Of a stretch of 64,000 bases of DNA, positions 699 to 42,984 are shown piece after piece. Numbering within the stretch: position 1 is the first letter of the stretch; each line of letters opens with the position of its first letter. The notes under the pieces are model-generated. The model was given only the letters and a program-made list of their open reading frames with translations, was not told where the DNA came from and did no database searches. A program made the translations under genes and the position numbers. This stretch comes from Escherichia coli (GTDB lineage Bacteria; Pseudomonadota; Gammaproteobacteria; Enterobacterales; Enterobacteriaceae): assembly GCF_003019035.1 (NCBI RefSeq), contig NZ_CP027447.1; one strand, written 5' to 3'.

Positions 699-2084
699 TT
701 ACGTTTCGCTCACCGGCGTTCTGTCACCATCATACAACGGCACTTTGCGATAGCGGCGGATCAGATACCACAAATATGCGCCGCCTAACGAAGCCCATAC
801 CAGACCGAGTGTCAGTGACGTTGACTCGAGGTTAACCCACAGCACACCCACCGTCAGCGCGCCAACCAGCGGCATCAGCAAATAGTGGAAGTGATCCTTC
901 CAGCTTTTATTCATTCCTTTACGCCGCCAGAAATGATTAAACACCGACAGATTTACGAAGGTAAATGCCACCAGAGCACCGAAGTTAATCAATGCTGTGG
1001 CGGTAACTAAATCGAAGAACAGCGCCGACAACGCGACAATCCCGACCATAATGACGTTCAGTGCCGGAGTCCGCCATTTCGGGTGCACATAGCCAAACAC
1101 GCGCTCCGGAAACACATTGTCACGCCCCATCACATACAGCAGACGCGACACGCTGGCGTGCGACGCCAGGCCAGACGCTAACGTGTTCACAAACGTGGTA
1201 CAGAGGAAAATCGACTGGAAGAGCTTGCCGCCGACGTACAGCGCAATCTCAGGCAGTGCGGCGTCCGGGTCTTTAAAGCGGCTGATATCAGGAAAGAACA
1301 GCTGCATAAAGAACGACGCAGCGATAAAGATAACGCCGCCGTATACCGCCGTCAGGAAGATGGCTTTCGGGATCACGCGTGCGGCGTCCGGCGTCTCTTC
1401 CGAAAGCGTGGTCACCGCATCGAAACCGAGGAAGGAGAAACAGACAATCGTCGCCCCGGTAATAATCGGGATCAGGTGCGCGTTCTCGCTGATAAACGGC
1501 TGAAGTGACCAGACGGTGCCAACGCCTTCTCCTTTATGCAGTCCCTGAACCACCAGGAAGATAAACACCACCATGATGGAGATTTGCACCAGTACAAACA
1601 GGGTATTGAAGTTAGCAACCAGGTTGACGCTCTTCAGATTCGCGGCGGTTAAAATGGCGACGAAGGTTACCACCCACACCCACGGCGGCACTTCCGGGAA
1701 GAGGGCGGAGAGATAGATTTTCGCCAACAAGACGTTGATCATCGGCAAAAAGAGATAATCCAGCAGCGATGACCAGCCGACCATAAATCCGACGTGCGGG
1801 TTAATCGACTTTTGCGCGTAGGTATAGGCCGAACCGGCTTCCGGAAACTGGCGAACCAGTTTGCCGTAGCTGATAGCGGTAAACAGCACGCCCGCCAGCG
1901 CCAGCAAATAGGACGCCGGAACGTGACCGTCGCTAATGCCGGAGACAATACCAAAAGTATCAAATACGGTCATCGGCGTGAGATAGGCCAGACCCATCAT
2001 CACCACCTGCCACAATTTCAGTGATTTTCGCAGACGGGTTTTGCCAGATTGCGCAGCAATAGTCAGTGGTGAATTAATAGCCAT
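699..2084 (-). CDS. puuP: putrescine importer, APC-family amino acid/polyamine permease
   Basis: 461-aa multi-TM permease; start set at MAINSPL (ATG 2082-2084 preceded by GGAGG) rather than the extended ORF start. Confidence 0.9.
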
Positions 2085-2386
2085 AGTTGCTGCCTCCCCT
2101 GCGTAATAAGGTTTGCGGTCGTGTCGACCTGAAATCAAACCTGTTTAGCAAGGGAAGCAAAGGGGGCGGAGTCCAGTCAGTCGCAGGAGGGGCGCATACG
2201 CAGCCTCCCTCGCCATGCGGGGATTTAATCATCGGCATCATCTCATTTCCTCGTCACAGTCTTAATCGTTAACGGAAGCCCGTTGCCGCCTGCGCTCCAT
2301 AACGCGACATCCGGGAAATGTCTGGATTACCAGCAAATGTCAGGCCTGGCTCCGCTCAGGCCGATGAAACAACCCCGCAAGGGGTA

Positions 2387-3805
2387 TTACGCGTTTTTCA
2401 ACATCCACTCAATTTCTGTTTCTGTGATGAGGCGCTCAAACTGCAACAGCTCATCATTTTTACAGGCGTGATAGACATGGCAGAAGCGTTCGCCTAAATA
2501 GCGGCGCAGGTGATCATTCTCGATAAACTCACCCAGGGCGTCGCTCTGGCGAATCGGGAAGGGTAAGCCTTCCTGTTCCAGCCCGTTACCTTCGACTTCT
2601 TCCTGTAATGGCAGTTCGTTATCAAGGCCATGCAAAATGCCGGCAAAAATCGCCGCCATCACCAGATACGGGTTGGCATCGGCACCCGCCACGCGATATT
2701 CCACGCGGTGATTATGGCGATCGCCGCAGGGAATACGCAGGGCGACGGTGCGGTTGTTATGGCCCCACGACGCCTGCGTCGGTACATACATCCCCGGCTG
2801 GAAGCGGCGATACGAGTTCACGTTTGGTGCCAGCAACGCCATTGATGACGGCATCAGGTCAATCATCCCGGCAAGCATCTTTTTCAGCAGCGGCGAATCT
2901 TCGCCTTCCGCGTCAGAAAGCACGTTCTCGCCACGGTTATTTTGCATACTGATATGGATATGCATCCCGCTGCCCGCGTGCTCTTCATACGGCTTCGCCA
3001 TAAAAGTGGCGTGCATCTTATGCTTTTCTGCCATCAGACGCACCAGGCGTTTTAGTGCCAGCGCATCATCGCAAGCTTCCAGCACGTTATCGGTATGGTA
3101 AAGATTGATTTCAAACTGACCCGGCGAGGCCTCAGCGACCGCGCCATCTGCCGGAATCAGCTGTAACTGCGCCAGTTCATCAATATCATTGAGCACGTCG
3201 GCGAAGTGGTTGAGATTATCAACGGAGTAAACCTGGCTTTGTGTATTGCGGTCATCGGTGCCGGGCGCGCAGGGCGGTTGCAGATACCCTTCAGCGTCGC
3301 GCTGGCGATCCAGTAAATAGAACTCCAGCTCTACCGCTACGACCGGGAACAATCCGCGCTGGCGCAGCTGCTGCCACAGGCGGTTAAGAACGTTCCGCGG
3401 CTCAACGTCAAAGGGAGCGCCATCTTCATCGACCATGGTCAGGAGCATCTGACCTATAAACTCTGGATCGGCGGCAGAAGGGGTTAAGGAACCGAGAACA
3501 GGAACACAGGTACGATCCGGTTCGCCCATTTCCTGACCCAGACCCGCTTCTTCAACTACGTTGCCCAGAATATCCATTGCAAATACCGAGGCCGGGAAAT
3601 AACACCCTTTCTCGAGCTTCTTCAGGCTTGAAACAGGAATACGTTTTCCACGGAAGCAACCATTCAAATCGGTAAGTAAAACATCAACATATTGCGTATT
3701 CGGGTAGCGCTCCAGGTAGCGTTTCACTTCCTGCGTAAAGGCGCTACCCCGCCTCTCTTCTGACTGCTGAACAAAGTTCTCTACTTCAACGATATTGGTT
3801 TCCAT
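2387..3805 (-). CDS. puuA: gamma-glutamylputrescine synthetase (glutamine synthetase family)
   Basis: 472 aa from METNIVEVENF; GS-type catalytic domain; upstream of puuP on the same strand. Confidence 0.9.
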   Translation of the reverse strand: METNIVEVENFVQQSEERRGSAFTQEVKRYLERYPNTQYVDVLLTDLNGCFRGKRIPVSSLKKLEKGCYFPASVFAMDILGNVVEEAGLGQEMGEPDRTCVPVLGSLTPSAADPEFIGQMLLTMVDEDGAPFDVEPRNVLNRLWQQLRQRGLFPVVAVELEFYLLDRQRDAEGYLQPPCAPGTDDRNTQSQVYSVDNLNHFADVLNDIDELAQLQLIPADGAVAEASPGQFEINLYHTDNVLEACDDALALKRLVRLMAEKHKMHATFMAKPYEEHAGSGMHIHISMQNNRGENVLSDAEGEDSPLLKKMLAGMIDLMPSSMALLAPNVNSYRRFQPGMYVPTQASWGHNNRTVALRIPCGDRHNHRVEYRVAGADANPYLVMAAIFAGILHGLDNELPLQEEVEGNGLEQEGLPFPIRQSDALGEFIENDHLRRYLGERFCHVYHACKNDELLQFERLITETEIEWMLKNA

Positions 3806-4016
3806 GATTCTTCGCCTTTGGTTTGTTTTCCGCTCGTTATCAAAGCGTAAAATATAATGACCACCATTCGAATCTGTATGCAAACTAAATGTTTGTTAAA
3901 TGTTAAATTGAGTTTGCAAAAATGAAAACCCACTGCTAGATTGAAAAAATATTGAACATAAAGGTCATTTAAAGCGTAGTAATGGCGATAATTTAGTCCA
4001 CTTTGTGAGATTGAGC
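3806..4016. promoter_or_regulatory. divergent puuA / puuD promoter-operator region (expected PuuR target)
   Basis: AT-rich 211-bp gap between divergently oriented puuA and puuD; exact operator not located. Confidence 0.4.
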
Positions 4017-4781
4017 ATGGAAAATATAATGAACAATCCGGTTATCGGTGTCGTAATGTGCAGGAACAGGCTTAAGGGCCATGCGACCCAGACTCTGCAA
4101 GAAAAGTACCTGAATGCCATCATCCACGCAGGCGGTTTGCCAATAGCGCTACCACATGCGCTGGCGGAACCGTCGTTACTTGAACAACTTTTGCCGAAAC
4201 TCGATGGTATTTATCTTCCTGGTAGTCCCAGCAATGTGCAGCCGCACCTATATGGTGAAAACGGCGATGAGCCTGACGCCGATCCCGGGCGTGATCTTCT
4301 GAGCATGGCGTTAATTAATGCCGCACTCGAAAGGCGCATCCCCATTTTCGCCATCTGCCGGGGTTTACAGGAACTGGTGGTGGCAACCGGTGGTTCGTTG
4401 CATCGCAAGCTGTGCGAACAGCCTGAATTGCTGGAACATCGGGAAGATCCCGAACTGCCGGTGGAGCAGCAATATGCACCGTCGCATGAAGTTCAGGTTG
4501 AAGAGGGGGGATTGCTGTCTGCGTTGTTACCTGAATGTAGCAACTTTTGGGTAAACTCTCTGCATGGACAAGGGGCGAAGGTCGTTAGCCCACGGTTGCG
4601 TGTTGAAGCTCGCTCGCCGGATGGCTTAGTTGAGGCGGTTAGCGTCATCAATCATCCTTTTGCGCTGGGCGTACAGTGGCACCCGGAATGGAACAGTAGC
4701 GAGTACGCGCTTTCGCGTATATTGTTCGAGGGCTTTATCACCGCTTGTCAGCACCATATCGCTGAAAAACAGCGACTCTGA
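4017..4781 (+). CDS. puuD: gamma-glutamyl-GABA hydrolase (class I glutamine amidotransferase-like)
   Basis: 254 aa from MENIMNNPVIGVVM; catalytic Cys in AICRGLQ motif. Confidence 0.9.
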   Translation: MENIMNNPVIGVVMCRNRLKGHATQTLQEKYLNAIIHAGGLPIALPHALAEPSLLEQLLPKLDGIYLPGSPSNVQPHLYGENGDEPDADPGRDLLSMALINAALERRIPIFAICRGLQELVVATGGSLHRKLCEQPELLEHREDPELPVEQQYAPSHEVQVEEGGLLSALLPECSNFWVNSLHGQGAKVVSPRLRVEARSPDGLVEAVSVINHPFALGVQWHPEWNSSEYALSRILFEGFITACQHHIAEKQRL

Positions 4782-4807
4782 CCACTACAGTTTAAGGAAA
4801 TGCAAAT

Positions 4808-5365
4808 ATGAGTGATGAGGGACTGGCGCCAGGAAAACGCTTGTCGGAAATCCGCCAGCAGCAGGGGCTTTCACAACGTCGTGCCGCCGAACTCTCCGGG
4901 CTGACTCACAGTGCTATCAGTACGATAGAACAAGATAAAGTCAGCCCTGCCATCAGTACGCTGCAAAAGCTGCTGAAGGTGTATGGTCTGTCACTCTCGG
5001 AATTCTTTTCCGAGCCGGAAAAACCTGATGAGCCGCAGGTCGTCATTAATCAGGACGACTTAATTGAGATGGGCAGTCAGGGTGTGTCAATGAAGCTGGT
5101 TCATAACGGTAACCCGAATCGCACGCTGGCGATGATCTTTGAAACTTACCAGCCGGGCACAACCACTGGGGAAAGAATTAAGCATCAGGGTGAGGAAATA
5201 GGCACTGTACTGGAAGGTGAAATTGTTCTGACCATTAATGGTCAGGATTATCATCTCGTCGCGGGGCAAAGTTATGCCATTAATACCGGCATCCCGCACA
5301 GTTTCAGTAATACGTCGGCAGGTATTTGCCGAATTATCAGCGCCCATACGCCCACCACGTTTTAA
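4808..5365 (+). CDS. puuR: HTH (XRE) + cupin transcriptional repressor of the puu genes
   Basis: 185 aa; N-terminal HTH (LSQRRAAELSGLTHSAISTIEQ), C-terminal cupin. Confidence 0.9.
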   Translation: MSDEGLAPGKRLSEIRQQQGLSQRRAAELSGLTHSAISTIEQDKVSPAISTLQKLLKVYGLSLSEFFSEPEKPDEPQVVINQDDLIEMGSQGVSMKLVHNGNPNRTLAMIFETYQPGTTTGERIKHQGEEIGTVLEGEIVLTINGQDYHLVAGQSYAINTGIPHSFSNTSAGICRIISAHTPTTF

Positions 5366-8284: not shown

Positions 8285-8321
8285 TTTCCGATTAACAGTG
8301 AAGAGTCAAAAGGTGTGAAAC

Positions 8322-9587
8322 ATGAGCAACAATGAATTCCATCAGCGTCGTCTTTCTGCTACCCCACGCGGGGTTGGCGTGATGTGTAACTTCTTCGCCC
8401 AGTCGGCAGAAAACGCTACGCTGAAGGACGTAGAGGGCAACGAATACATCGATTTCGCCGCAGGCATTGCGGTGCTGAATACCGGGCATCGCCACCCTGA
8501 TCTGGTCGCGGCGGTGGAGCAGCAATTGCAACAGTTTACCCACACGGCGTATCAGATTGTGCCGTACGAAAGCTACGTCACGCTGGCGGAGAAAATTAAC
8601 GCCCTTGCCCCAGTGAGCGGGCAGGCTAAAACCGCATTCTTCACTACCGGCGCGGAAGCGGTGGAAAACGCGGTGAAAATTGCTCGCGCCCATACCGGAC
8701 GACCTGGCGTGATTGCGTTTAGCGGCGGCTTCCACGGTCGTACATATATGACCATGGCGCTGACCGGAAAAGTTGCGCCGTACAAAATCGGCTTCGGCCC
8801 GTTCCCTGGTTCGGTGTATCACGTACCTTATCCGTCAGATTTACACGGCATTTCAACACAGGACTCCCTCGACGCCATCGAACGCTTGTTTAAATCAGAC
8901 ATCGAAGCGAAGCAGGTGGCGGCGATTATTTTCGAACCGGTGCAGGGCGAGGGCGGTTTCAACGTTGCGCCAAAAGAGCTGGTTGCCGCCATTCGCCGCC
9001 TGTGCGACGAGCACGGCATTGTGATGATTGCCGATGAAGTGCAAAGCGGCTTTGCGCGTACCGGTAAACTGTTTGCCATGGATCATTACGTCGATAAGCC
9101 GGATTTAATGACGATGGCGAAAAGCCTCGCGGGCGGGATGCCGCTTTCGGGCGTGGTCGGTAACGCGAATATTATGGACGCGCCCGCGCCGGGCGGGTTG
9201 GGTGGCACCTACGCCGGGAACCCGCTGGCGGTGGCTGCCGCGCACGCGGTGCTCAATATTATCGACAAAGAATCACTCTGCGAACGCGCGAATCAACTGG
9301 GCCAGCGTCTCAAAAACACGTTGATTGATGCCAAAGAAAGCGTTCCGGCCATTGCTGCGGTACGCGGCCTGGGGTCGATGATTGCGGCAGAGTTTAACGA
9401 TCCGCAAACGGGCGAGCCGTCAGCGGCGATTGCACAGAAAATCCAGCAACGCGCGCTGGCGCAGGGGCTGCTTCTGCTGACCTGTGGCGCATACGGCAAC
9501 GTGATTCGTTTCCTGTATCCGCTGACCATCCTGGATGCGCAATTCGATGCGGCAATGAAAATTTTGCAGGATGCGCTGAAAGATTAA
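8322..9587 (+). CDS. puuE: 4-aminobutyrate aminotransferase (PLP-dependent class III)
   Basis: 421 aa; class-III aminotransferase signature incl. MTMAKSLAGG lysine region. Confidence 0.9.
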   Translation: MSNNEFHQRRLSATPRGVGVMCNFFAQSAENATLKDVEGNEYIDFAAGIAVLNTGHRHPDLVAAVEQQLQQFTHTAYQIVPYESYVTLAEKINALAPVSGQAKTAFFTTGAEAVENAVKIARAHTGRPGVIAFSGGFHGRTYMTMALTGKVAPYKIGFGPFPGSVYHVPYPSDLHGISTQDSLDAIERLFKSDIEAKQVAAIIFEPVQGEGGFNVAPKELVAAIRRLCDEHGIVMIADEVQSGFARTGKLFAMDHYVDKPDLMTMAKSLAGGMPLSGVVGNANIMDAPAPGGLGGTYAGNPLAVAAAHAVLNIIDKESLCERANQLGQRLKNTLIDAKESVPAIAAVRGLGSMIAAEFNDPQTGEPSAAIAQKIQQRALAQGLLLLTCGAYGNVIRFLYPLTILDAQFDAAMKILQDALKD

Positions 9588-15507: not shown

Positions 15508-17049
15508 ATGCGTCTGGAAGTCTTTTGTGAAGACCGACTCGGTCTGACCCGCGAATTACTCGATCTACTCGTGCTAAGAGGCATTGATTTACGCGGTATT
15601 GAGATTGACCCCATTGGGCGAATCTACCTCAATTTTGCTGAACTGGAGTTTGAGAGTTTCAGCACTCTGATGGCCGAAATACGCCGTATTGCAGGTGTTA
15701 CCGATGTGCGTACTGTCCCGTGGATGCCTTCCGAACGTGAGCATCTGGCGTTGAGCGCGTTACTGGAGGCGTTGCCTGAACCTGTGCTTTCTGTCGATAT
15801 GAAAAGCAAAGTGGATATGGCGAACCCGGCGAGCTGTCAGCTTTTTGGGCAAAAATTGGATCGCCTGCGCAACCATACCGCCGCGCAATTGATTAACGGC
15901 TTTAATTTTTTACGCTGGCTGGAAAGCGAACCGCAAGATTCGCATAACGAGCATGTCGTTATTAATGGGCAGAATTTCCTGATGGAGATTACGCCTGTTT
16001 ATCTTCAGGATGAAAATGATCAACACGTCCTGACCGGTGCGGTGGTGATGCTGCGATCAACGATTCGTATGGGCCGTCAGTTGCAAAATGTCGCTGCCCA
16101 GGACGTCAGCGCCTTTAGTCAAATTGTCGCCGTCAGCCCGAAAATGAAGCATGTTGTCGAACAGGCGCAGAAACTGGCGATGCTAAGCGCGCCACTGCTG
16201 ATTACGGGTGATACCGGCACCGGAAAAGATCTCTTTGCCTACGCCTGTCATCAGGCAAGCCCCAGAGCGAGCAAACCTTACCTGGCGCTGAACTGTGCGT
16301 CTATACCGGAAGATGCGGTCGAGAGTGAACTGTTTGGTCATGCTCCGGAAGGGAAGAAAGGGTTCTTTGAGCAGGCGAACGGTGGTTCGGTGCTGTTGGA
16401 TGAAATAGGGGAAATGTCACCACGGATGCAGGCGAAATTACTGCGTTTCCTTAATGATGGCACCTTCCGTCGGGTTGGCGAAGACCATGAGGTGCATGTC
16501 GATGTGCGGGTGATTTGTGCTACGCAGAAGAATCTGGTCGAACTGGTGCAAAAAGGCGTGTTCCGTGAAGATCTCTATTATCGTCTGAACGTGTTGACGC
16601 TCAATCTGCCGCCGCTACGTGACTGTCCGCAGGACATCATGCCGTTAACCGAGCTGTTCGTCGCCCGCTTTGCCGACGAGCAGGGCGTGCCGCGTCCGAA
16701 ACTGGCCGCTGATCTGAATACTGTACTTACGCGTTATGCGTGGCCGGGAAATGTGCGGCAGTTAAAGAACGCTATCTATCGTGCACTGACACAACTGGAC
16801 GGTTATGAGCTGCGTCCACAGGATATTTTGTTGCCGGATTATGACGCCGCAACGGTAGCCGTGGGCGAAGATGCGATGGAAGGTTCGCTGGACGAAATCA
16901 CCAGCCGTTTTGAACGCTCGGTATTAACCCAGCTTTATCGCAATTATCCCAGCACGCGCAAACTGGCAAAACGTCTCGGCGTTTCACATACCGCGATTGC
17001 CAATAAGTTGCGGGAATATGGTCTGAGTCAGAAGAAGAACGAAGAGTAA
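15508..17049 (+). CDS. tyrR: aromatic amino acid regulator TyrR (ACT-PAS-AAA+-HTH)
   Basis: 513 aa from MRLEVFCEDRLGLTRELLDLL; Walker A GDTGTGKD; ESELFGH motif. Confidence 0.95.
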   Translation: MRLEVFCEDRLGLTRELLDLLVLRGIDLRGIEIDPIGRIYLNFAELEFESFSTLMAEIRRIAGVTDVRTVPWMPSEREHLALSALLEALPEPVLSVDMKSKVDMANPASCQLFGQKLDRLRNHTAAQLINGFNFLRWLESEPQDSHNEHVVINGQNFLMEITPVYLQDENDQHVLTGAVVMLRSTIRMGRQLQNVAAQDVSAFSQIVAVSPKMKHVVEQAQKLAMLSAPLLITGDTGTGKDLFAYACHQASPRASKPYLALNCASIPEDAVESELFGHAPEGKKGFFEQANGGSVLLDEIGEMSPRMQAKLLRFLNDGTFRRVGEDHEVHVDVRVICATQKNLVELVQKGVFREDLYYRLNVLTLNLPPLRDCPQDIMPLTELFVARFADEQGVPRPKLAADLNTVLTRYAWPGNVRQLKNAIYRALTQLDGYELRPQDILLPDYDAATVAVGEDAMEGSLDEITSRFERSVLTQLYRNYPSTRKLAKRLGVSHTAIANKLREYGLSQKKNEE

Positions 17050-17055
17050 GCGTGA

Positions 17056-17088
17056 ATATGCCTGATGGTGCAACACCATCAGGCATAT
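17056..17088. terminator. bidirectional intrinsic terminator between convergent tyrR and tpx
   Basis: perfect palindrome ATATGCCTGATGGTG-CA-ACACCATCAGGCATAT. Confidence 0.7.
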
Positions 17089-17092
17089 TAAC

Positions 17093-17599
17093 TTATGCTT
17101 TCAGTACAGCCAGAGCTGCTTCGTAATCCGGCTCGGTGGTGATTTCATCCACCAGCTGGCTGAAAATCACATTGTCATTTTCATCAATAACCACAACGGC
17201 ACGCGCTGCCAGACCTTTCAGTGGGCCATCAGCAATTGCCACACCGTAGGCTTGCAGGAATTCAGCGTTACGGAAAGTGGAGAGGGTGATAACGTTGTTC
17301 AGACCTTCTGCGCCGCAGAAACGAGACTGGGCGAATGGCAGATCGGCAGAGATACACAGCACAACGGTGTTGTCGATCTCGGTTGCCAGTTGGTTAAACT
17401 TACGTACTGATGCGGCGCAAACACCGGTATCAATACTCGGGAAAATGTTCAGCACTTTGCGTTTACCCGCAAACTGACCGAGGGTGACGTCAGACAGATC
17501 TTTTGCCACGAGAGTAAAAGTCTGCGCTTTGCTACCCGCCTGCGGGATGGAATTGGCGACTGTAACCGGGTTGCCCTGGAAATGAACGGTTTGTGACAT
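17093..17599 (-). CDS. tpx: thiol peroxidase (atypical 2-Cys peroxiredoxin)
   Basis: 168 aa; peroxidatic Cys in TGVCA; sequence recognised. Confidence 0.95.
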
Positions 17600-17717
17600 G
17601 ATTATCTTTCCTGTTTACATATAGTTAACGTCACACCTAGTTTATGCTAACTGTCAATAACACAGCAAACGCTATTTGCGCTTAATCCGCAGACCACCGC
17701 GACAACAAGGAGTAAAG

Positions 17718-18683
17718 ATGAGAACCGTTAAGGTATTTGAGGAGGCCTGGCCCTTACATACCCCGTTTGTGATTGCCCGGGGAAGTCGCAGTGAAGCGCG
17801 CGTGGTGGTGGTTGAACTGGAAGAAGATGGCGTCAAAGGTACGGGCGAATGTACGCCTTATCCGCGCTATGGCGAAAGTGATGCCTCGGTAATGGCGCAA
17901 ATTATGAGCGTCGTGCCGCAATTAGAGAAAGGGCTGACACGGGAGGAGTTACAAAAAATCCTCCCTGCCGGCGCAGCACGTAATGCGCTGGATTGTGCAT
18001 TGTGGGATCTCGCGGCGCGAAAACAGCAGGAATCGCTGGCTGATTTGATCGGCATAACGCTTCCCGGGACAGTTATCACTGCACAGACGGTAGTCATCGG
18101 TACGCCTGATCAGATGGCCAATAGTGCATCAACACTCTGGCAGGCAGGCGCGAAATTACTGAAAGTGAAGCTGGATAACCATCTTATCAGTGAGCGGATG
18201 GTGGCAATTCGCACCGCTGTGCCCGATGCGACGCTGATCGTTGATGCAAATGAATCCTGGCGTGCAGAAGGGTTGGCGGCGCGTTGCCAGCTATTGGCGG
18301 ATTTAGGCGTTGCGATGCTTGAACAACCGCTTCCTGCGCAGGACGATGCGGCACTGGAGAATTTTATTCATCCGTTGCCGATTTGTGCTGATGAAAGTTG
18401 TCATACTCGTAGCAATCTGAAGGCGCTGAAAGGGCGCTATGAGATGGTTAACATTAAGCTTGATAAAACCGGTGGTCTGACGGAAGCGCTGGCGCTGGCG
18501 ACTGAAGCACGTGCACAAGGTTTTAGTCTGATGCTGGGCTGCATGTTGTGTACCTCTCGGGCCATTAGCGCCGCTTTACCGCTGGTGCCGCAGGTCAGTT
18601 TCGCCGATCTTGACGGACCGACCTGGCTGGCGGTAGATGTGGAACCGGCGCTTCAGTTCACGACGGGCGAATTGCATCTTTAG
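17718..18683 (+). CDS. ycjG: L-Ala-D/L-Glu epimerase (enolase superfamily)
   Basis: 321 aa from MRTVKVFEEAW; enolase-superfamily fold; adjacent to mpaA. Confidence 0.85.
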   Translation: MRTVKVFEEAWPLHTPFVIARGSRSEARVVVVELEEDGVKGTGECTPYPRYGESDASVMAQIMSVVPQLEKGLTREELQKILPAGAARNALDCALWDLAARKQQESLADLIGITLPGTVITAQTVVIGTPDQMANSASTLWQAGAKLLKVKLDNHLISERMVAIRTAVPDATLIVDANESWRAEGLAARCQLLADLGVAMLEQPLPAQDDAALENFIHPLPICADESCHTRSNLKALKGRYEMVNIKLDKTGGLTEALALATEARAQGFSLMLGCMLCTSRAISAALPLVPQVSFADLDGPTWLAVDVEPALQFTTGELHL

Positions 18684-19386
18684 GATGCCAGCGCAGCAAG
18701 TTTGCCATCGCAAAGAGATATTTTTCGCTGGCTTCGTCGGAGGAGATGGGTGGAAACTCTGCGGTGATGCAATGCAAGTTGAGATCTGCACACCAACTGC
18801 CGAAAGAGCCAGGCGTTTCATAACCGACGCTGGTTACCAGAGGCAATTCAAACGCCTGGGCCAGCCATTCACCTAATTCGCTGTGTCTGGGATCTTCAAT
18901 ACAGGCTAGCGGATCGTGGAATGAGACCACCCAGGCAGGTTGAATGCGGTGTATAAGTTGGCACAGCGCCTGGGTTTCAGGTTCGGAGCCAGGTTTGTCA
19001 CCTGTCAGTAAAACGACATTACGTTCTTCAGCGGCGCTGTTCCAGCGATAAACTGTTTCACCTTCCTTCCAGTTCGCTGCCGGAAAGTTTCGGTTTAAAT
19101 CCACACCATTAGCATTGGCCCGTAACCCTAACTGGCAGCCGTCAGGATTCACACACAGCACCACATGATGGCGGCGCAAAGACGGTGTCAAAGTCCGCAG
19201 AGCACAGGAGAGCGTGACGATCGAAGAGTTTTCATCACCGTGAGTGCCAGCCAGAATCAAACCACTTTCGTGACTGGCTGCAGGGGCCGGAAACCAGATT
19301 AACGGCGCGCCCAATAATGAACGTCCGTAATGTTCTGTACCGGGCGGAAATGCGCCGCGTTCGGCGCGTGGGCGAGTTACGGTCAT
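18658..19386 (-). CDS. mpaA: murein tripeptide amidase A (M14 zinc carboxypeptidase-like)
   Basis: 242 aa from MTVTRPRAERGAF; HGDE zinc motif; 3' end overlaps ycjG 3' end by 26 bp. Confidence 0.85.
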   Translation of the reverse strand: MTVTRPRAERGAFPPGTEHYGRSLLGAPLIWFPAPAASHESGLILAGTHGDENSSIVTLSCALRTLTPSLRRHHVVLCVNPDGCQLGLRANANGVDLNRNFPAANWKEGETVYRWNSAAEERNVVLLTGDKPGSEPETQALCQLIHRIQPAWVVSFHDPLACIEDPRHSELGEWLAQAFELPLVTSVGYETPGSFGSWCADLNLHCITAEFPPISSDEASEKYLFAMANLLRWHPKDAIRPS

Positions 19387-19568
19387 GATCGTCTCTGGTT
19401 CAGGAAGTATTACAGGCAGTGTTGTGCAAATTTTGCGGATTATCAAATCCTTTTCTTCAACGCTATGTTATCGATCTTGTATCACTTTTTTGCCGGAAGT
19501 TGTTTGCATTTCTTTAAGGCGAAACAAATAATTACGCATCAATTTTAATGTCGGTTAGAGGGAAACTT

Positions 19569-21182
19569 ATGAAGCACTCTGTTTCAGTCACGTGTTGTGC
19601 GCTGTTGGTCAGCAGCATTTCTCTTTCGTATGCTGCTGAAGTTCCGAGCGGCACAGTACTGGCAGAGAAGCAGGAGCTGGTGCGCCACATTAAAGATGAG
19701 CCAGCGTCGCTGGATCCCGCTAAAGCCGTGGGCCTGCCGGAGATTCAGGTCATTCGCGATCTGTTTGAAGGACTGGTGAATCAGAACGAGAAAGGGGAGA
19801 TTGTCCCCGGCGTTGCGACTCAGTGGAAAAGTAATGACAACCGTATCTGGACTTTTACCCTGCGCGATAACGCAAAATGGGCGGATGGCACACCGGTAAC
19901 GGCGCAAGATTTTGTCTACAGCTGGCAACGTCTGGTGGACCCGAAAACGCTATCGCCATTTGCATGGTTTGCCGCGCTGGCGGGAATCAACAACGCACAG
20001 GCGATTATTGATGGTAAAGCCGCGCCTGACCAGCTTGGCGTCACCGCAGTTGATGCCCATACTTTGAAAATCCAGCTTGATAAACCATTGCCGTGGTTTG
20101 TGAATTTAACCGCTAACTTTGCCTTCTTCCCGGTGCAAAAAGCCAACGTAGAAAGCAGTAAAGAGTGGACGAAACCCGGAAATCTGATCGGTAATGGCGC
20201 TTATGTTCTTAAAGAGCGCGTAGTCAATGAAAAACTGGTCGTGGTACCGAATACCCATTATTGGGATAACGCCAAAACGGTGCTGCAAAAAGTGACCTTC
20301 CTGCCAATTAATCAGGAATCCGCAGCCACTAAGCGTTATCTCGCGGGGGATATTGATATCACCGAATCCTTCCCGAAAAATATGTATCAGAAGCTGTTGA
20401 AGGATATTCCGGGGCAGGTTTATACGCCGCCGCAGCTCGGGACCTATTATTATGCGTTTAACACGCAAAAAGGGCCGACGGCAGATCAGCGAGTTCGTCT
20501 GGCATTAAGTATGACGATAGATCGCCGCCTGATGACCGAAAAAGTATTAGGGACGGGCGAAAAGCCAGCGTGGCATTTTACACCAGATGTTACTGCAGGA
20601 TTTACGCCGGAACCTTCGCCGTTTGAACAAATGAGTCAGGAAGAACTGAATGCGCAGGCAAAAACTTTGTTGAGCGCAGCTGGTTATGGTCCGCAAAAAC
20701 CGCTGAAGTTGACGCTTTTGTATAACACTTCAGAAAACCATCAAAAAATTGCGATTGCTGTAGCATCGATGTGGAAAAAGAACCTGGGTGTAGATGTTAA
20801 ATTGCAAAACCAGGAATGGAAAACCTATATCGATAGCCGTAACACCGGCAATTTTGATGTTATCCGCGCCTCGTGGGTAGGTGATTATAATGAACCCTCC
20901 ACTTTCCTGACATTATTAACGTCAACGCATTCCGGGAATATTTCACGCTTTAACAATCCGGCATATGACAAAGTTCTGGCCCAGGCATCGACGGAAAATA
21001 CCGTTAAAGCGCGTAATGCCGATTACAACGCGGCAGAAAAAATCCTCATGGAGCAAGCACCGATTGCACCAATTTATCAATATACCAATGGACGATTAAT
21101 CAAGCCGTGGCTGAAAGGTTATCCCATTAATAACCCTGAAGATGTGGCGTACAGTCGGACTATGTATATTGTGAAGCATTGA
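19569..21182 (+). CDS. mppA: periplasmic murein tripeptide-binding protein (ABC SBP family 5)
   Basis: 537 aa from MKHSVSVTCCALLVSSISLSYA (signal peptide); OppA-like. Confidence 0.9.
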   Translation: MKHSVSVTCCALLVSSISLSYAAEVPSGTVLAEKQELVRHIKDEPASLDPAKAVGLPEIQVIRDLFEGLVNQNEKGEIVPGVATQWKSNDNRIWTFTLRDNAKWADGTPVTAQDFVYSWQRLVDPKTLSPFAWFAALAGINNAQAIIDGKAAPDQLGVTAVDAHTLKIQLDKPLPWFVNLTANFAFFPVQKANVESSKEWTKPGNLIGNGAYVLKERVVNEKLVVVPNTHYWDNAKTVLQKVTFLPINQESAATKRYLAGDIDITESFPKNMYQKLLKDIPGQVYTPPQLGTYYYAFNTQKGPTADQRVRLALSMTIDRRLMTEKVLGTGEKPAWHFTPDVTAGFTPEPSPFEQMSQEELNAQAKTLLSAAGYGPQKPLKLTLLYNTSENHQKIAIAVASMWKKNLGVDVKLQNQEWKTYIDSRNTGNFDVIRASWVGDYNEPSTFLTLLTSTHSGNISRFNNPAYDKVLAQASTENTVKARNADYNAAEKILMEQAPIAPIYQYTNGRLIKPWLKGYPINNPEDVAYSRTMYIVKH

Positions 21183-26952: not shown

Positions 26953-28398
26953 TTATTTTAAAGGTGACGGTGTCACGTTTTTCGGGATAGGGCAGTGATA
27001 CGGTTGCGTGTCCGTAACTTGCTGATGCTCTTGTTGGCATTCTTGCAATAGCCCTGAATCAATGAAGAGATTAAGTGTGGTTGCTGCCATAGTTTTCGCC
27101 GCCAGCAGCATTCCTTTATGAGCAATAGATGTTCGCCCCTGGCTAACCAGTTGCCACGTATGTAGCGGGGTACCGACGGCAAAACAGGGGCTGAAACACT
27201 GGGCAACAGGCAGTTTCCAACTGACGTCGCCGACATCAGTCGATGCCGCAAGCACGTTATCGGTGGCGGCATATGGAGCGACTTCATTCGCCAGTACCGT
27301 TTCACGATGACGTAGTGCAAAAGCCTTGCCGTTTTCGCCACCGGTTGCGGCGATATTATTCAGACTGTTTTGCCGATCGTTGGGGGTGAGCGTAGCCTGA
27401 ATTTGTTTCGCAAAAGCCAGTTCTTCGGAGTTCCATTCCGGGGTAGCAAAATGGGATAGGGCTCGGTACATGGCATTTTCTAAGGTGCGATTCGGGAGAT
27501 AACTGGAACAGGCTTTGTCGAAGCGGCATTCAACCGTGGTTTCGGTCATCAATGCCGCACCTTCGGCGATTTTGGCGACCCGATCATAAATATGCTGCAC
27601 ATCGGTCATTTCGGGGGCGCGGATAAGATAAAGCACTTCTGCCTGCGCCTGGACCTCGTTGGGCGAGATCCCGCCGCTATCTGTGATGGCATAGTGTACG
27701 CGCGCTTTTTCAATAATATGTTCGTTGAGGAAGTTGGTGCCAGTGGTCATCAACGTTACGGCATCAAGGGCGCTGCGTCCCAAATGAGGGGAATTCGCGG
27801 CATGTGCTGCGATCCCTTTAAAGCGCCATGATGCCTGAATGTTTGCCAGCGTGCGGGTATTGAACATACCGGCAAAGGCTTCCGGGTGCCATGTGAGTGC
27901 CGCATCCACATCATCAAATACCCCCTCGCGGACCATGAACGTTTTACCCGAGCCGCCTTCTTCGCCAGGACAACCATAAAAGCGCACTGTGCCGCCTTGC
28001 CCATATTGTTCCAGCCATTTCTTGACGGCTATTGCAGCGGCAAAGGCGGCAGTTCCCAGCAAATTGTGTCCGCAACCGTGACCATTTTCACCGGGCGTCG
28101 CGGATGTAGGTTGCGCGCAACCTGCTTGCTGACTTAAACCTGCCAGGGCGTCATATTCCCCCAGCAGGGCGATAACCGGTTTGCCTTGACCAAACGAAGC
28201 AATAAAGGCATTTGGGATATTGCCTACGTTGCGGGTAACGGTGAAGCCTGCAGACTCCAGCGCCGAAGCCAGATGCTCCGCTGACCAGAACTCTTCAAAA
28301 CGTGTTTCTGGATGATCCCAGATTTGATCGGCAATATCGGTATAACGTTGGCGATCGGCTTCAATCGCATCGTCGATAAAACGATAGATTTCCTGCAT
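26953..28398 (-). CDS. abgB: p-aminobenzoyl-glutamate hydrolase subunit B (M20 peptidase family)
   Basis: 481 aa; M20 metal-binding region GCPGEEGGSGK...; start ATG shares nucleotides with the upstream ORF stop (ATGA at 28398). Confidence 0.9.
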   Translation of the reverse strand: MQEIYRFIDDAIEADRQRYTDIADQIWDHPETRFEEFWSAEHLASALESAGFTVTRNVGNIPNAFIASFGQGKPVIALLGEYDALAGLSQQAGCAQPTSATPGENGHGCGHNLLGTAAFAAAIAVKKWLEQYGQGGTVRFYGCPGEEGGSGKTFMVREGVFDDVDAALTWHPEAFAGMFNTRTLANIQASWRFKGIAAHAANSPHLGRSALDAVTLMTTGTNFLNEHIIEKARVHYAITDSGGISPNEVQAQAEVLYLIRAPEMTDVQHIYDRVAKIAEGAALMTETTVECRFDKACSSYLPNRTLENAMYRALSHFATPEWNSEELAFAKQIQATLTPNDRQNSLNNIAATGGENGKAFALRHRETVLANEVAPYAATDNVLAASTDVGDVSWKLPVAQCFSPCFAVGTPLHTWQLVSQGRTSIAHKGMLLAAKTMAATTLNLFIDSGLLQECQQEHQQVTDTQPYHCPIPKNVTPSPLK

Positions 28399-29301
28399 CA
28401 GATACCTCGCGTCCAGGGAAAATTGAGCGCGGTGCGCGCCAGCGTTTCGACGGCAATAGCGAGAACCTGCTCGTCAAAATCGAATTTTTCATTGTGATGA
28501 CCTGCCGCCAGCTGTGTGCCAAATACCATGTAGGAGGCTTGCCCTTGATGTCGCTGCACGCGGGCCATCATTAATGTGGCATCTTCGGAACCCGCAGGCG
28601 CTTCAACACGTTCAATGGCCTGATTGACCCCCGCGACCTGAGCCGCCTGGATTTGCAACCATGCGACCCATTGCGGCGAAGGAGAACTGGCGGTAGCTGC
28701 ACCCATCAGACGAGTTTCAACGCCGACACCATACATGGTTGCTGCGCCCTGAATCGCTTGTTGTGCACGGTCAAAAACATATTGATTAATGACGTCGCTG
28801 GCCCCGCGTGTTTCCACTTTCAGCAACGCTGAGGCGGGAACAACATTACGACCGCTTCCTGCCTGCATAACGCCCACGTTTACTCTGGAAGCGCCTTCGC
28901 TGTGCGGGGCGATGGCTGACATCCTGCTCTTCACTGAAATCCAGCGCGTCCATATCGACACGGAAAGCCATCACCGGACCGGGGCGACCGGTATCCAGGG
29001 TAGCGACGATGCCAGTGAAACCGCCTTCAAAAGCCGCAATCCATTGTTCTAGCGCCCCCTGTTGACGAGCGCGCTCGAATTCGCGTTGTAGAGTGAATTC
29101 ATCAGGTAATCCCATCCGGCTACTTTCATTAACGACTTCGCGGCCCAGCGCCAGTGAATAACCGAGCTGGTGCAATTCTTCCGCAACAACGGTGGCAGTG
29201 CGGAATTCCACCCAGCCAGACTCTGCATAGTGGTGAAAATCACGTCGCCAGTACGATAATTTTGGGGCAAGCGAATTAATAAATTGATTCAAAGACTCCA
29301 T
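28398..29301 (-). pseudogene. abgA: abgA (M20D amidohydrolase subunit A) disrupted by internal deletion and frameshift
   Basis: N-terminal 5' part (MESLNQFINSLAPKL...DMDALDFSEEQDVSH) and C-terminal part (AIAPHSEGASRVNVGVMQAGSGRNVVP...FPWTRGI) lie in different frames; the central metal-binding segment expected for M20D enzymes is absent; total span 904 bp versus about 1.3 kb expected. Confidence 0.75.
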
Positions 29302-42717: not shown

Positions 42718-42984
42718 ATGCGAGCAGCGTTTTGGGTAGGGTGTGCCGCTTTATTGTTGTCGGCGTGTAGTAGTGAACCTGTTCAGCAGGCGACTGCGGC
42801 GCACGTAGCGCCAGGTTTAAAAGCGTCGATGTCCAGTAGTGGAGAAGCAAATTGTGCAATGATCGGCGGTTCGCTTTCTGTTGCCCGTCAACTGGATGGT
42901 ACGGCGATTGGGATGTGTGCATTACCCAACGGCAAACGCTGTAGCGAACAGTCACTTGCCGCCGGGAGCTGTGGCAGCTATTAA
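42718..42984 (+). CDS. ydbJ: DUF333 small lipoprotein
   Basis: 88 aa; lipobox LLLSAC. Confidence 0.75.
   Translation: MRAAFWVGCAALLLSACSSEPVQQATAAHVAPGLKASMSSSGEANCAMIGGSLSVARQLDGTAIGMCALPNGKRCSEQSLAAGSCGSY

Follow-up and report, generated by a model that had tools for sequence, protein, structure and literature searches.

Two convergent genes of Escherichia coli, ycjG and mpaA, end inside each other, which raises the question of whether the sequence shared by their 3' ends is a regulatory device, through which each transcript acts on the other, or an ordinary product of two coding sequences that lie end to end. The two enzymes are consecutive in murein-peptide salvage: MpaA frees L-Ala-D-Glu from murein tripeptide, and YcjG then epimerises L-Ala-D-Glu. 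Both genes are contained in the window analysed here, i.e. a stretch of 64,000 nucleotides of E. coli DNA. From the geometry of the junction, its state in related genomes, the available termination and antisense data and the pattern of constraint on both proteins, we judge that the overlap is genuine but most probably of an ordinary tail-to-tail kind, without a function of its own.

Geometry of the overlap and identity of the two genes

The plus-strand gene ycjG (17718..18683) encodes the 321-aa L-Ala-D/L-Glu epimerase, as established from its open reading frame, the RefSeq annotation, a match to PDB 1JPD (the solved E. coli enzyme) over residues 1-321, i.e. full length, and the Pfam domains MR_MLE_N and MR_MLE_C. 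The same kinds of evidence identify the minus-strand gene mpaA (18658..19386) as encoding the 242-aa murein tripeptide amidase, which matches PDB 5HXD, the solved E. coli MpaA, over residues 1-237, as well as 4AXV, a second solved MpaA, and carries the Pfam domain Peptidase_M14. The first-pass annotation had named both as murein-peptide salvage genes, and the RefSeq products, the PDB molecule names and established pathway knowledge bear this out for a pair of consecutive enzymes.

According to the reading frames, the two 3' ends overlap on opposite strands by exactly 26 nt (18658-18683), a feature also supported by the codon table and the substitution pattern; the earlier coordinates are the same and RefSeq agrees with them. 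The ycjG frame ends with GAA TTG CAT CTT TAG, its stop TAG occupying 18681-18683 within mpaA, and the mpaA frame ends with AAA GAT GCA ATT CGC CCG TCG TGA, its stop being the reverse complement of 18658-18660 within ycjG, so that each stop falls inside the partner gene, as was first proposed. Read on the plus strand, the shared bases encode part of F314 of YcjG followed by TTGELHL and the stop, and read on the minus strand they encode part of P235 of MpaA followed by KDAIRPS and the stop. The overlap is in phase 123:132, with mpaA codon position 2 opposite ycjG codon position 3. This is hence a convergent pair of overlapping coding genes, in which both proteins are real, the strands are opposite and each stop lies inside the partner coding sequence. 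An 81-aa minus-strand open reading frame at 18576-18821 was treated as spurious, being simply the third antisense frame.

Concerning other E. coli genomes, the same 26 nt are shared by the two genes in the RefSeq annotations of strain SCU-301, a K-12 derivative and MG1655, where ycjG lies at 1388930..1389895 and mpaA at 1389870..1390598. The region 17600-19600 shows 100% identity to SCU-301 and 97-98% to other complete genomes, and of 5412 complete E. coli genomes, 4471 (83%) carry a 70-nt segment across the junction without any change, the remainder departing from it by 1-4 bases. A stop codon being set by its frame, the overlap cannot be removed in E. coli by calling another stop.

A length of 26 nt is no more than chance would give. 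For two genes abutting with zero spacer, the three possible minus-strand frames would stop 4, 26 or 108 nt within ycjG; abutment without spacer thus makes some overlap unavoidable, and 26 nt is the middle of the three possible values. Nine convergent gene pairs are found in the window, two of which overlap, hslJ/ydbJ (4 nt) and ycjG/mpaA (26 nt), the others being 20-130 nt apart. For E. coli as a whole, the literature counts 58 or 75 overlaps between convergent coding sequences and places their origin in mutation of the stop codon; phase 123:132 is the commonest, accounting for 49% of convergent overlaps of at least 5 nt. With shared 3' ends, this same phase and a probable origin by displacement of a stop, ycjG/mpaA belongs to the general class of prokaryotic convergent overlapping pairs; nothing essential differs, except that its 26 nt exceed the modal 4 nt of the TTAA/CTAG type.

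Distribution of the overlap in related genomes

A scan with one genome per species gave at least 80 mpaA loci, with Salmonella and Shigella absent from the sample, which makes the boundary of the 26-nt clade approximate. Among the matches listed, 34 species loci have ycjG directly after mpaA in convergent orientation, and the coding sequences overlap in 26 of them. An overlap of 26 nt occurs in five of the loci listed (E. albertii, a divergent E. coli, two Citrobacter and Pantoea stewartii), the Pantoea case being independent, as its sequence is different. The largest class among these matches is an overlap of 10 nt, with 13 loci that include Enterobacter, Kluyvera, Pseudocitrobacter, Superficieibacter, Pseudescherichia, Siccibacter and others; Klebsiella oxytoca has a 10-nt overlap as well. 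Six listed loci overlap by 4 nt (Serratia, Yersinia, Mangrovibacter, Pluralibacter), one by 21 nt and one by 29 nt, and the remaining eight show gaps of 3, 8, 9, 10, 17, 36, 72 and 160 nt. The two ends lie no more than 36 nt apart in 32 of the 34 loci among the matches listed.

The sequence comparison thus points to a convergent, spacer-free arrangement that is old and conserved, and to a 26-nt overlap length that is not, the 26-nt state appearing confined, among the matches listed, to Escherichia and Citrobacter plus the one Pantoea case. The check in related genomes proposed at the outset therefore has a divided outcome: the convergent arrangement is kept, but the overlap itself varies between 26, 10 and 4 nt and gives way to gaps in 8 of the 34 loci.

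The gene order around the junction is also kept, the block mppA<>mpaA><ycjG<>tpx being found across Enterobacterales. The block is old in the order, and mpaA and ycjG have long abutted in it without spacer or terminator. Pectobacterium, Dickeya and Brenneria are without ycjG, and tpx follows mpaA directly there on the same strand. In E. coli, tpx has its own promoter-like site, and double-stranded RNA (dsRNA) reads over it are 20-100 times above those over ycjG and mpaA.

Origin of the 26-nt state

In the genera with a 10-nt overlap, the ycjG strand reads CTT CAC CTC TGA GG.. at the junction, and mpaA stops at the complement of the TCA contained in CTT-CAC. In Escherichia and Citrobacter the corresponding stretch is TTG/CTY CAT CTY TAG G, with one base fewer at the ycjG stop. 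The candidate site of the missing base is the TAGGA that begins with this stop (18681..18685, plus strand), as located by alignment of the junctions; there the 10-nt genera have TGAGG, TGAGA, TGAGC or TGATC, and Escherichia and Citrobacter have TAGG. The span from mpaA start to ycjG start differs by the same amount, with 1669 nt in Escherichia versus 1670 nt in Enterobacter.

We infer from these alignments that the loss of 1 nt at the ycjG stop (TGAGG to TAGG) turned the widespread 10-nt overlap into the 26-nt one; this loss would date to the last ancestor shared by Escherichia and Citrobacter, the direction of the change being read from the outgroup distribution over about 35 species without Salmonella and Shigella. 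Such a deletion would have kept the ycjG stop at the same codon and shifted the mpaA frame relative to ycjG. The former mpaA stop, that of the 10-nt overlap, would then be bypassed and translation would go on for five codons, to the complement of the Phe314-Thr315 codons of ycjG (TTC ACG, 18657..18662, plus strand), which supplies the present mpaA stop. The identity of this stop follows the Phe codon, TTC ACG giving TGA and TTT ACG giving TAA.

In one metagenomic variant resembling Klebsiella, the mpaA frame is shifted at a point further upstream and reaches the same 26-nt endpoint, which fits the 26-nt point being the first stop in that frame.

Transcription termination at the junction

The first-pass annotation had held that the nested stops leave no room for terminators. 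As regards intrinsic termination this is confirmed: there is no intergenic space, a consensus scan of 17700-19500 gave no intrinsic-terminator-like site in the bodies of ycjG or mpaA, and the closest sites of this kind are found at the 5' end of ycjG (some 1 kb off) and within the 5' end of mppA. Our own scan of both strands gave no hairpin with a U tract near the junction, the best hairpins being without U tract, and a single weak hairpin (-13.5 kcal/mol) spans the junction, likewise without one. No Rfam family was found in 17000-19700 at E≤1. With neither intergenic room nor an intrinsic terminator in the gene bodies, each transcript has to enter the partner gene.

Termination does nevertheless exist. 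In MG1655, Term-seq assigned no 3' end to ycjG (Adams et al. 2021), and a Rho termination region was mapped antisense to mpaA at 1390286 on the plus strand (score 3.94, p 7.2e-5; Adams et al. 2021 suppl. file 2), a K-12 mapping in 800-nt windows and of coarse resolution. By coordinate offset this position corresponds to 19074 of the window, 391 nt past the ycjG stop, where the plus RNA, antisense to mpaA, is rich in C and poor in G (18990..19140, C/G ratio 1.3-1.7). The published K-12 Rho score and the C-rich, G-poor RNA together mark Rho-dependent termination of plus-strand read-through. According to the published data, plus-strand transcription through ycjG ends by Rho a few hundred nt within antisense mpaA, and minus-strand transcription through mpaA has no mapped end inside ycjG.

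A comparison can be made with the bidirectional terminators described from SEnd-seq (Wang et al. preprint 2022), which also stop convergent transcription in a shared region. These use a hairpin that pauses both polymerases and yields uniform 3' ends; the ycjG/mpaA junction, by contrast, is without such an element, i.e. without a G+C-rich, A/U-flanked hairpin between the 3' ends, and the mapped termination is Rho-dependent and about 390 nt off.

Antisense transcripts and RNase III

Since any mRNA with its own stop codon spans the 26 nt, the two transcripts necessarily overlap. The pair is among the 165 convergent excludons that ExcludonFinder called in at least 50% of 58 MG1655 RNA-seq sets (Sanmartin et al. 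2025), and the antisense transcript overlap that characterises such pairs is found here. Both genes are expressed at low level, with sense and antisense reads of 51.2 and 10.0 RPM for ycjG and 73.9 and 17.6 RPM for mpaA, antisense amounting to about 20% of sense (Huang et al. 2020). Two p19-captured RNase III duplexes of 21-22 bp, at 1-4 RPM, lie inside mpaA (Huang et al. 2020 Table S3); mapped to the window they fall at 19181..19258, 500-575 nt past the ycjG stop. The antisense overlap of the ycjG and mpaA transcripts is hence real, and it is already recorded in published RNA-seq and p19 data.

The initial proposal had been that the arrangement implies transcriptional interference or antisense overlap. 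The excludon listing, the antisense reads and the p19 duplexes uphold the second term; the first, taken as functional interference, is not supported. In two RNase III mutants, rnc-14 and rnc-38, neither sense RNA rises, ycjG going from 51 to 39 and 33 RPM and mpaA from 74 to 42 and 22 RPM in one RNA-seq set (Huang et al. 2020), and both genes are expressed at low level.

By-product or regulatory device

Taken together, these data are most likely to mean that the overlap is a tolerated by-product, in a pair of genes that serve one pathway and are weakly expressed, and not a regulatory device; the 26-nt overlap itself is most likely not a selected feature, and a regulatory consequence of it looks unlikely. 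Two observations weigh against reading it as a by-product. The terminator-less abutment, seen in 32 of the 34 loci listed, could also be explained by selection for transcript overlap, and excludon pairs show higher synteny than other neighbouring genes according to the ExcludonFinder paper.

The best-surviving alternative, which we regard as unlikely, is that the junction was selected to be without terminator, as part of a regulatory excludon or noncontiguous operon in which the two genes repress each other by collision of RNA polymerases or by RNase III cleavage of the duplex. The same reading, held at the same level, would extend to the neighbours, with mpaA reading through to tpx and tyrR reading through to ycjG, four genes thus lying in nested overlapping units. 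In its favor, MG1655 has entries of all three kinds at this locus: besides the convergent pair, tpx-ycjG is among 16 divergent excludons and mpaA-ycjG-tpx is among three noncontiguous operons, the latter a coverage-based listing (Sanmartin et al. 2025). Moreover, a top-20 dsRNA cluster spans all of tpx, possibly through tyrR-ycjG read-through (Huang et al. 2020), the p19 duplexes lie inside mpaA, the gene block and its tight abutment are kept across Enterobacterales, and the genera without ycjG have mpaA followed by tpx on the same strand. These points are offset by several others. A coverage-based caller must flag overlapping coding sequences whenever both are expressed, and the variable overlap length, with gaps in 8 of the 34 listed loci, speaks against a selected overlap. 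In K-12 ycjG and mpaA belong to the same PgrR regulon, which argues for co-expression and not exclusion, and for consecutive enzymes of one pathway mutual exclusion makes little physiological sense. The sense RNAs are not raised in the rnc mutants, p19-captured dsRNA amounts to 25-112 RPM on the pair versus 1563-5161 RPM on tpx (Huang et al. 2020), and the junction is without the pausing hairpin that a programmed collision requires.

A broader version would place selection on the terminator-less junction as it occurs in more than 30 genera of Enterobacterales, as a device within the nested units tyrR-[tpx]-ycjG and mpaA-[ycjG]-tpx, where the balance between the two salvage enzymes, and their coupling to the peroxidase Tpx, would be governed by polymerase collision, by Rho and by RNase III. 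We hold this version to be improbable, less likely still than the regulatory reading just described; were it true, the 26-nt overlap of Escherichia would be merely the local form of a conserved architecture.

Which gene dictates the shared sequence

In nearly all Enterobacteriaceae YcjG has 321 aa and ends in F-x-x-G-x-L-H-L, with F314 and G317 nearly invariant over 32 orthologues. In the AlphaFold model of YcjG (mean pLDDT 95.7) residues 311-320 have a pLDDT of 97, and two confident strands are predicted at 313-315 and 318-320. MpaA, on the other hand, is conserved over 16 orthologues up to LL[RH]W, and is variable beyond it in both length (0-12 residues) and sequence.

The same asymmetry appears within the Escherichia and Citrobacter overlap, where 8 of the 26 columns are variable. 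Six of these eight are ycjG codon position 3, i.e. mpaA position 2, and the other two are first-position changes in ycjG, one a synonymous Leu change and one Glu-to-Gln. Only one residue changes in YcjG as a result, versus five of the eight positions of the MpaA tail, which is found as KDAIRPS, KDAILRS, KDAIRRS, KDGAARS or RDEAVRS. These comparisons show that the structured C-terminal beta-hairpin of YcjG is under purifying selection, and that the extra MpaA tail AIRPS (codons 238-242, 18661..18675, minus strand) is a passenger, a stretch free of constraint that only Escherichia and Citrobacter have and that changes with the wobble positions of ycjG. With the YcjG end conserved and structured and the MpaA tail variable, the shared bases serve YcjG. 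The structural data are in line with this, as the crystallised E. coli MpaA chain of 5HXD is without residues 238-242 and the Vibrio enzyme of 4AXV stops at a point that corresponds roughly to residue 237; looking in the literature for the publication behind 5HXD brought up nothing relevant. The AlphaFold model of MpaA, weak as it is (mean pLDDT 64.7, from a 16-sequence alignment), gives residues 239-242 a pLDDT below 50, which suggests that the tail may be disordered.

The converse, that the tail KDAIRPS is functional in stability, oligomerisation or degradation and forces mpaA into ycjG, is very improbable. It could draw on the 242-aa length and terminal R-x-S pattern kept in Escherichia and Citrobacter, and on the junction being identical in 83% of E. 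coli genomes; but the changes in the tail track the ycjG wobble sites, most genera stop 3-7 residues sooner and some straight after LLHW, and the crystal construct, the Vibrio enzyme and the low predicted confidence all point the other way. Finally, an annotation artefact, with one frame or end miscalled and true proteins that do not overlap, can practically be discarded: the mpaA start has been revised before (an older 262-aa TTG open reading frame against 242 aa now), a reminder of past gene-model errors, but only starts are open to choice, the frames are backed by homology to solved structures and by conservation, and metagenome contigs give the same ends by independent calls.

Comparison with other named systems

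Convergent excludons resemble ycjG/mpaA in that the pair is catalogued by name among them, the transcripts overlap and no terminator lies between the genes. However, they are defined by mutually exclusive expression, and ycjG and mpaA encode consecutive enzymes under the same repressor in K-12 and show no rise in RNase III mutants. The mscL-arfA pair of E. coli is likewise convergent, enriched in Enterobacterales and complementary in its 3' regions; there, the mscL 3' UTR lies over the arfA 3' coding sequence, in contrast to the coding-over-coding arrangement of ycjG/mpaA, and antisense regulation has been tested, mscL RNA rising more than twofold on arfA deletion. The noncontiguous operons first described in S. 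aureus offer a third parallel, with mpaA-ycjG-tpx as one of three MG1655 candidates and a proposed tyrR-ycjG read-through across tpx, but this listing follows from overlaps of the ycjG transcript at both of its ends and makes the locus a candidate only.

Significance

The overlap as such matters little, as it stands in the K-12 reference annotation and the overlap of the transcripts is catalogued. Both were already known, and what is added here is the proposed 1-nt deletion as the source of the overlap, together with the unequal constraint on the two genes. The locus thereby offers a clean worked example in which a single-base deletion spares one stop and frameshifts the unconstrained tail of the neighbour, and in which the gene with the structured C terminus dictates the shared sequence. 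Should the lack of a terminator, conserved as it is, turn out to be functional, the pair would be a convenient test locus for excludon overlaps within a single pathway, with growth on murein tripeptide as its phenotype.

Gene content and variants outside E. coli

In the Pectobacterium, Brenneria and Dickeya loci L027, L029, L033 and L037, mpaA occurs with no neighbouring ycjG (about 3190-3280), and it is tpx that lies downstream of mpaA, on the same strand and at a spacing of roughly 60-190 nt. Because a convergent ycjG is present in Vibrio and Microbulbifer, the state of these genera looks like a loss of ycjG. A different kind of variation is found in a Klebsiella-like metagenomic mpaA, P0072, present on 7 contigs, whose frameshifted C terminus (..AMTDCCAGRLKDEARRC) destroys the conserved LLHW motif and terminates where that of E. 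coli mpaA does, at the 26-nt overlap. On metagenome contig L086 mpaA and ycjG occupy 1501-2229 and 2204-3169, respectively, and on L087, a second contig, the adjacent ycjG is broken into two ORFs. These L086 and L087 variants may reflect either gene decay or faulty assembly.

Transcript ends and flanking features

Concerning the 5' end of mpaA, Term-seq of MG1655 places an ORF-internal 3' end at 1390559 on the minus strand, 39 nt into the gene (Adams et al. 2021). At this position the window retains, within the first 39 nt of mpaA (19347-19386, minus strand), a small G+C hairpin (CGCGCCGAACGCGGCG) followed by CATTT, and the internal 3' end may reflect premature termination or RNA processing. 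On the ycjG side, a p19-captured dsRNA cluster that ranks among the top 20 by abundance for E. coli protein-coding genes covers the entire tpx gene (17093-17599); the authors explain it by transcription of the plus strand that comes from tyrR and/or proceeds towards ycjG (Huang et al. 2020). Just upstream of a tpx promoter-like site (17628-17601), a weak terminator-like hairpin is located on the minus strand (17684-17666).

The window contains a second convergent coding overlap, of 4 nt, between hslJ and ydbJ (42981-42984), a pair also included in the published excludon list (Sanmartin et al. 2025). RefSeq annotates three pseudogenes in this strain, the frameshifted puuE (8321-9587) and abgA-like M20 hydrolase (28398-29301), and ynbD, with an internal stop (61176-62468).

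Allele divergence and the mpaA-mppA junction

Among complete E. coli records, only the source strain itself reaches at least 99% identity over the 2 kb of window 17600-19600, the other 5417 all being 95-99% identical (98.2% for the best of the matches listed); hence, by the standards of the species, this strain seems to carry an unusually divergent ycjG-mpaA allele.

In this strain mpaA also adjoins the divergent mppA, with window 19387-19568 as intergenic region. In MG1655 and most E. coli the two genes are separated by ymjC-ymjD-ycjY-pgrR, and the window-type arrangement occurs in only 172 of the 5418 complete E. coli genomes. Since it is shared, among the loci listed, by E. albertii, Citrobacter and every other Enterobacterales sampled, the four genes of K-12 look like an insertion. 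With mpaA directly beside mppA, the locus in this strain therefore lacks PgrR, which is reported to repress both ycjG and the mpaA operon.
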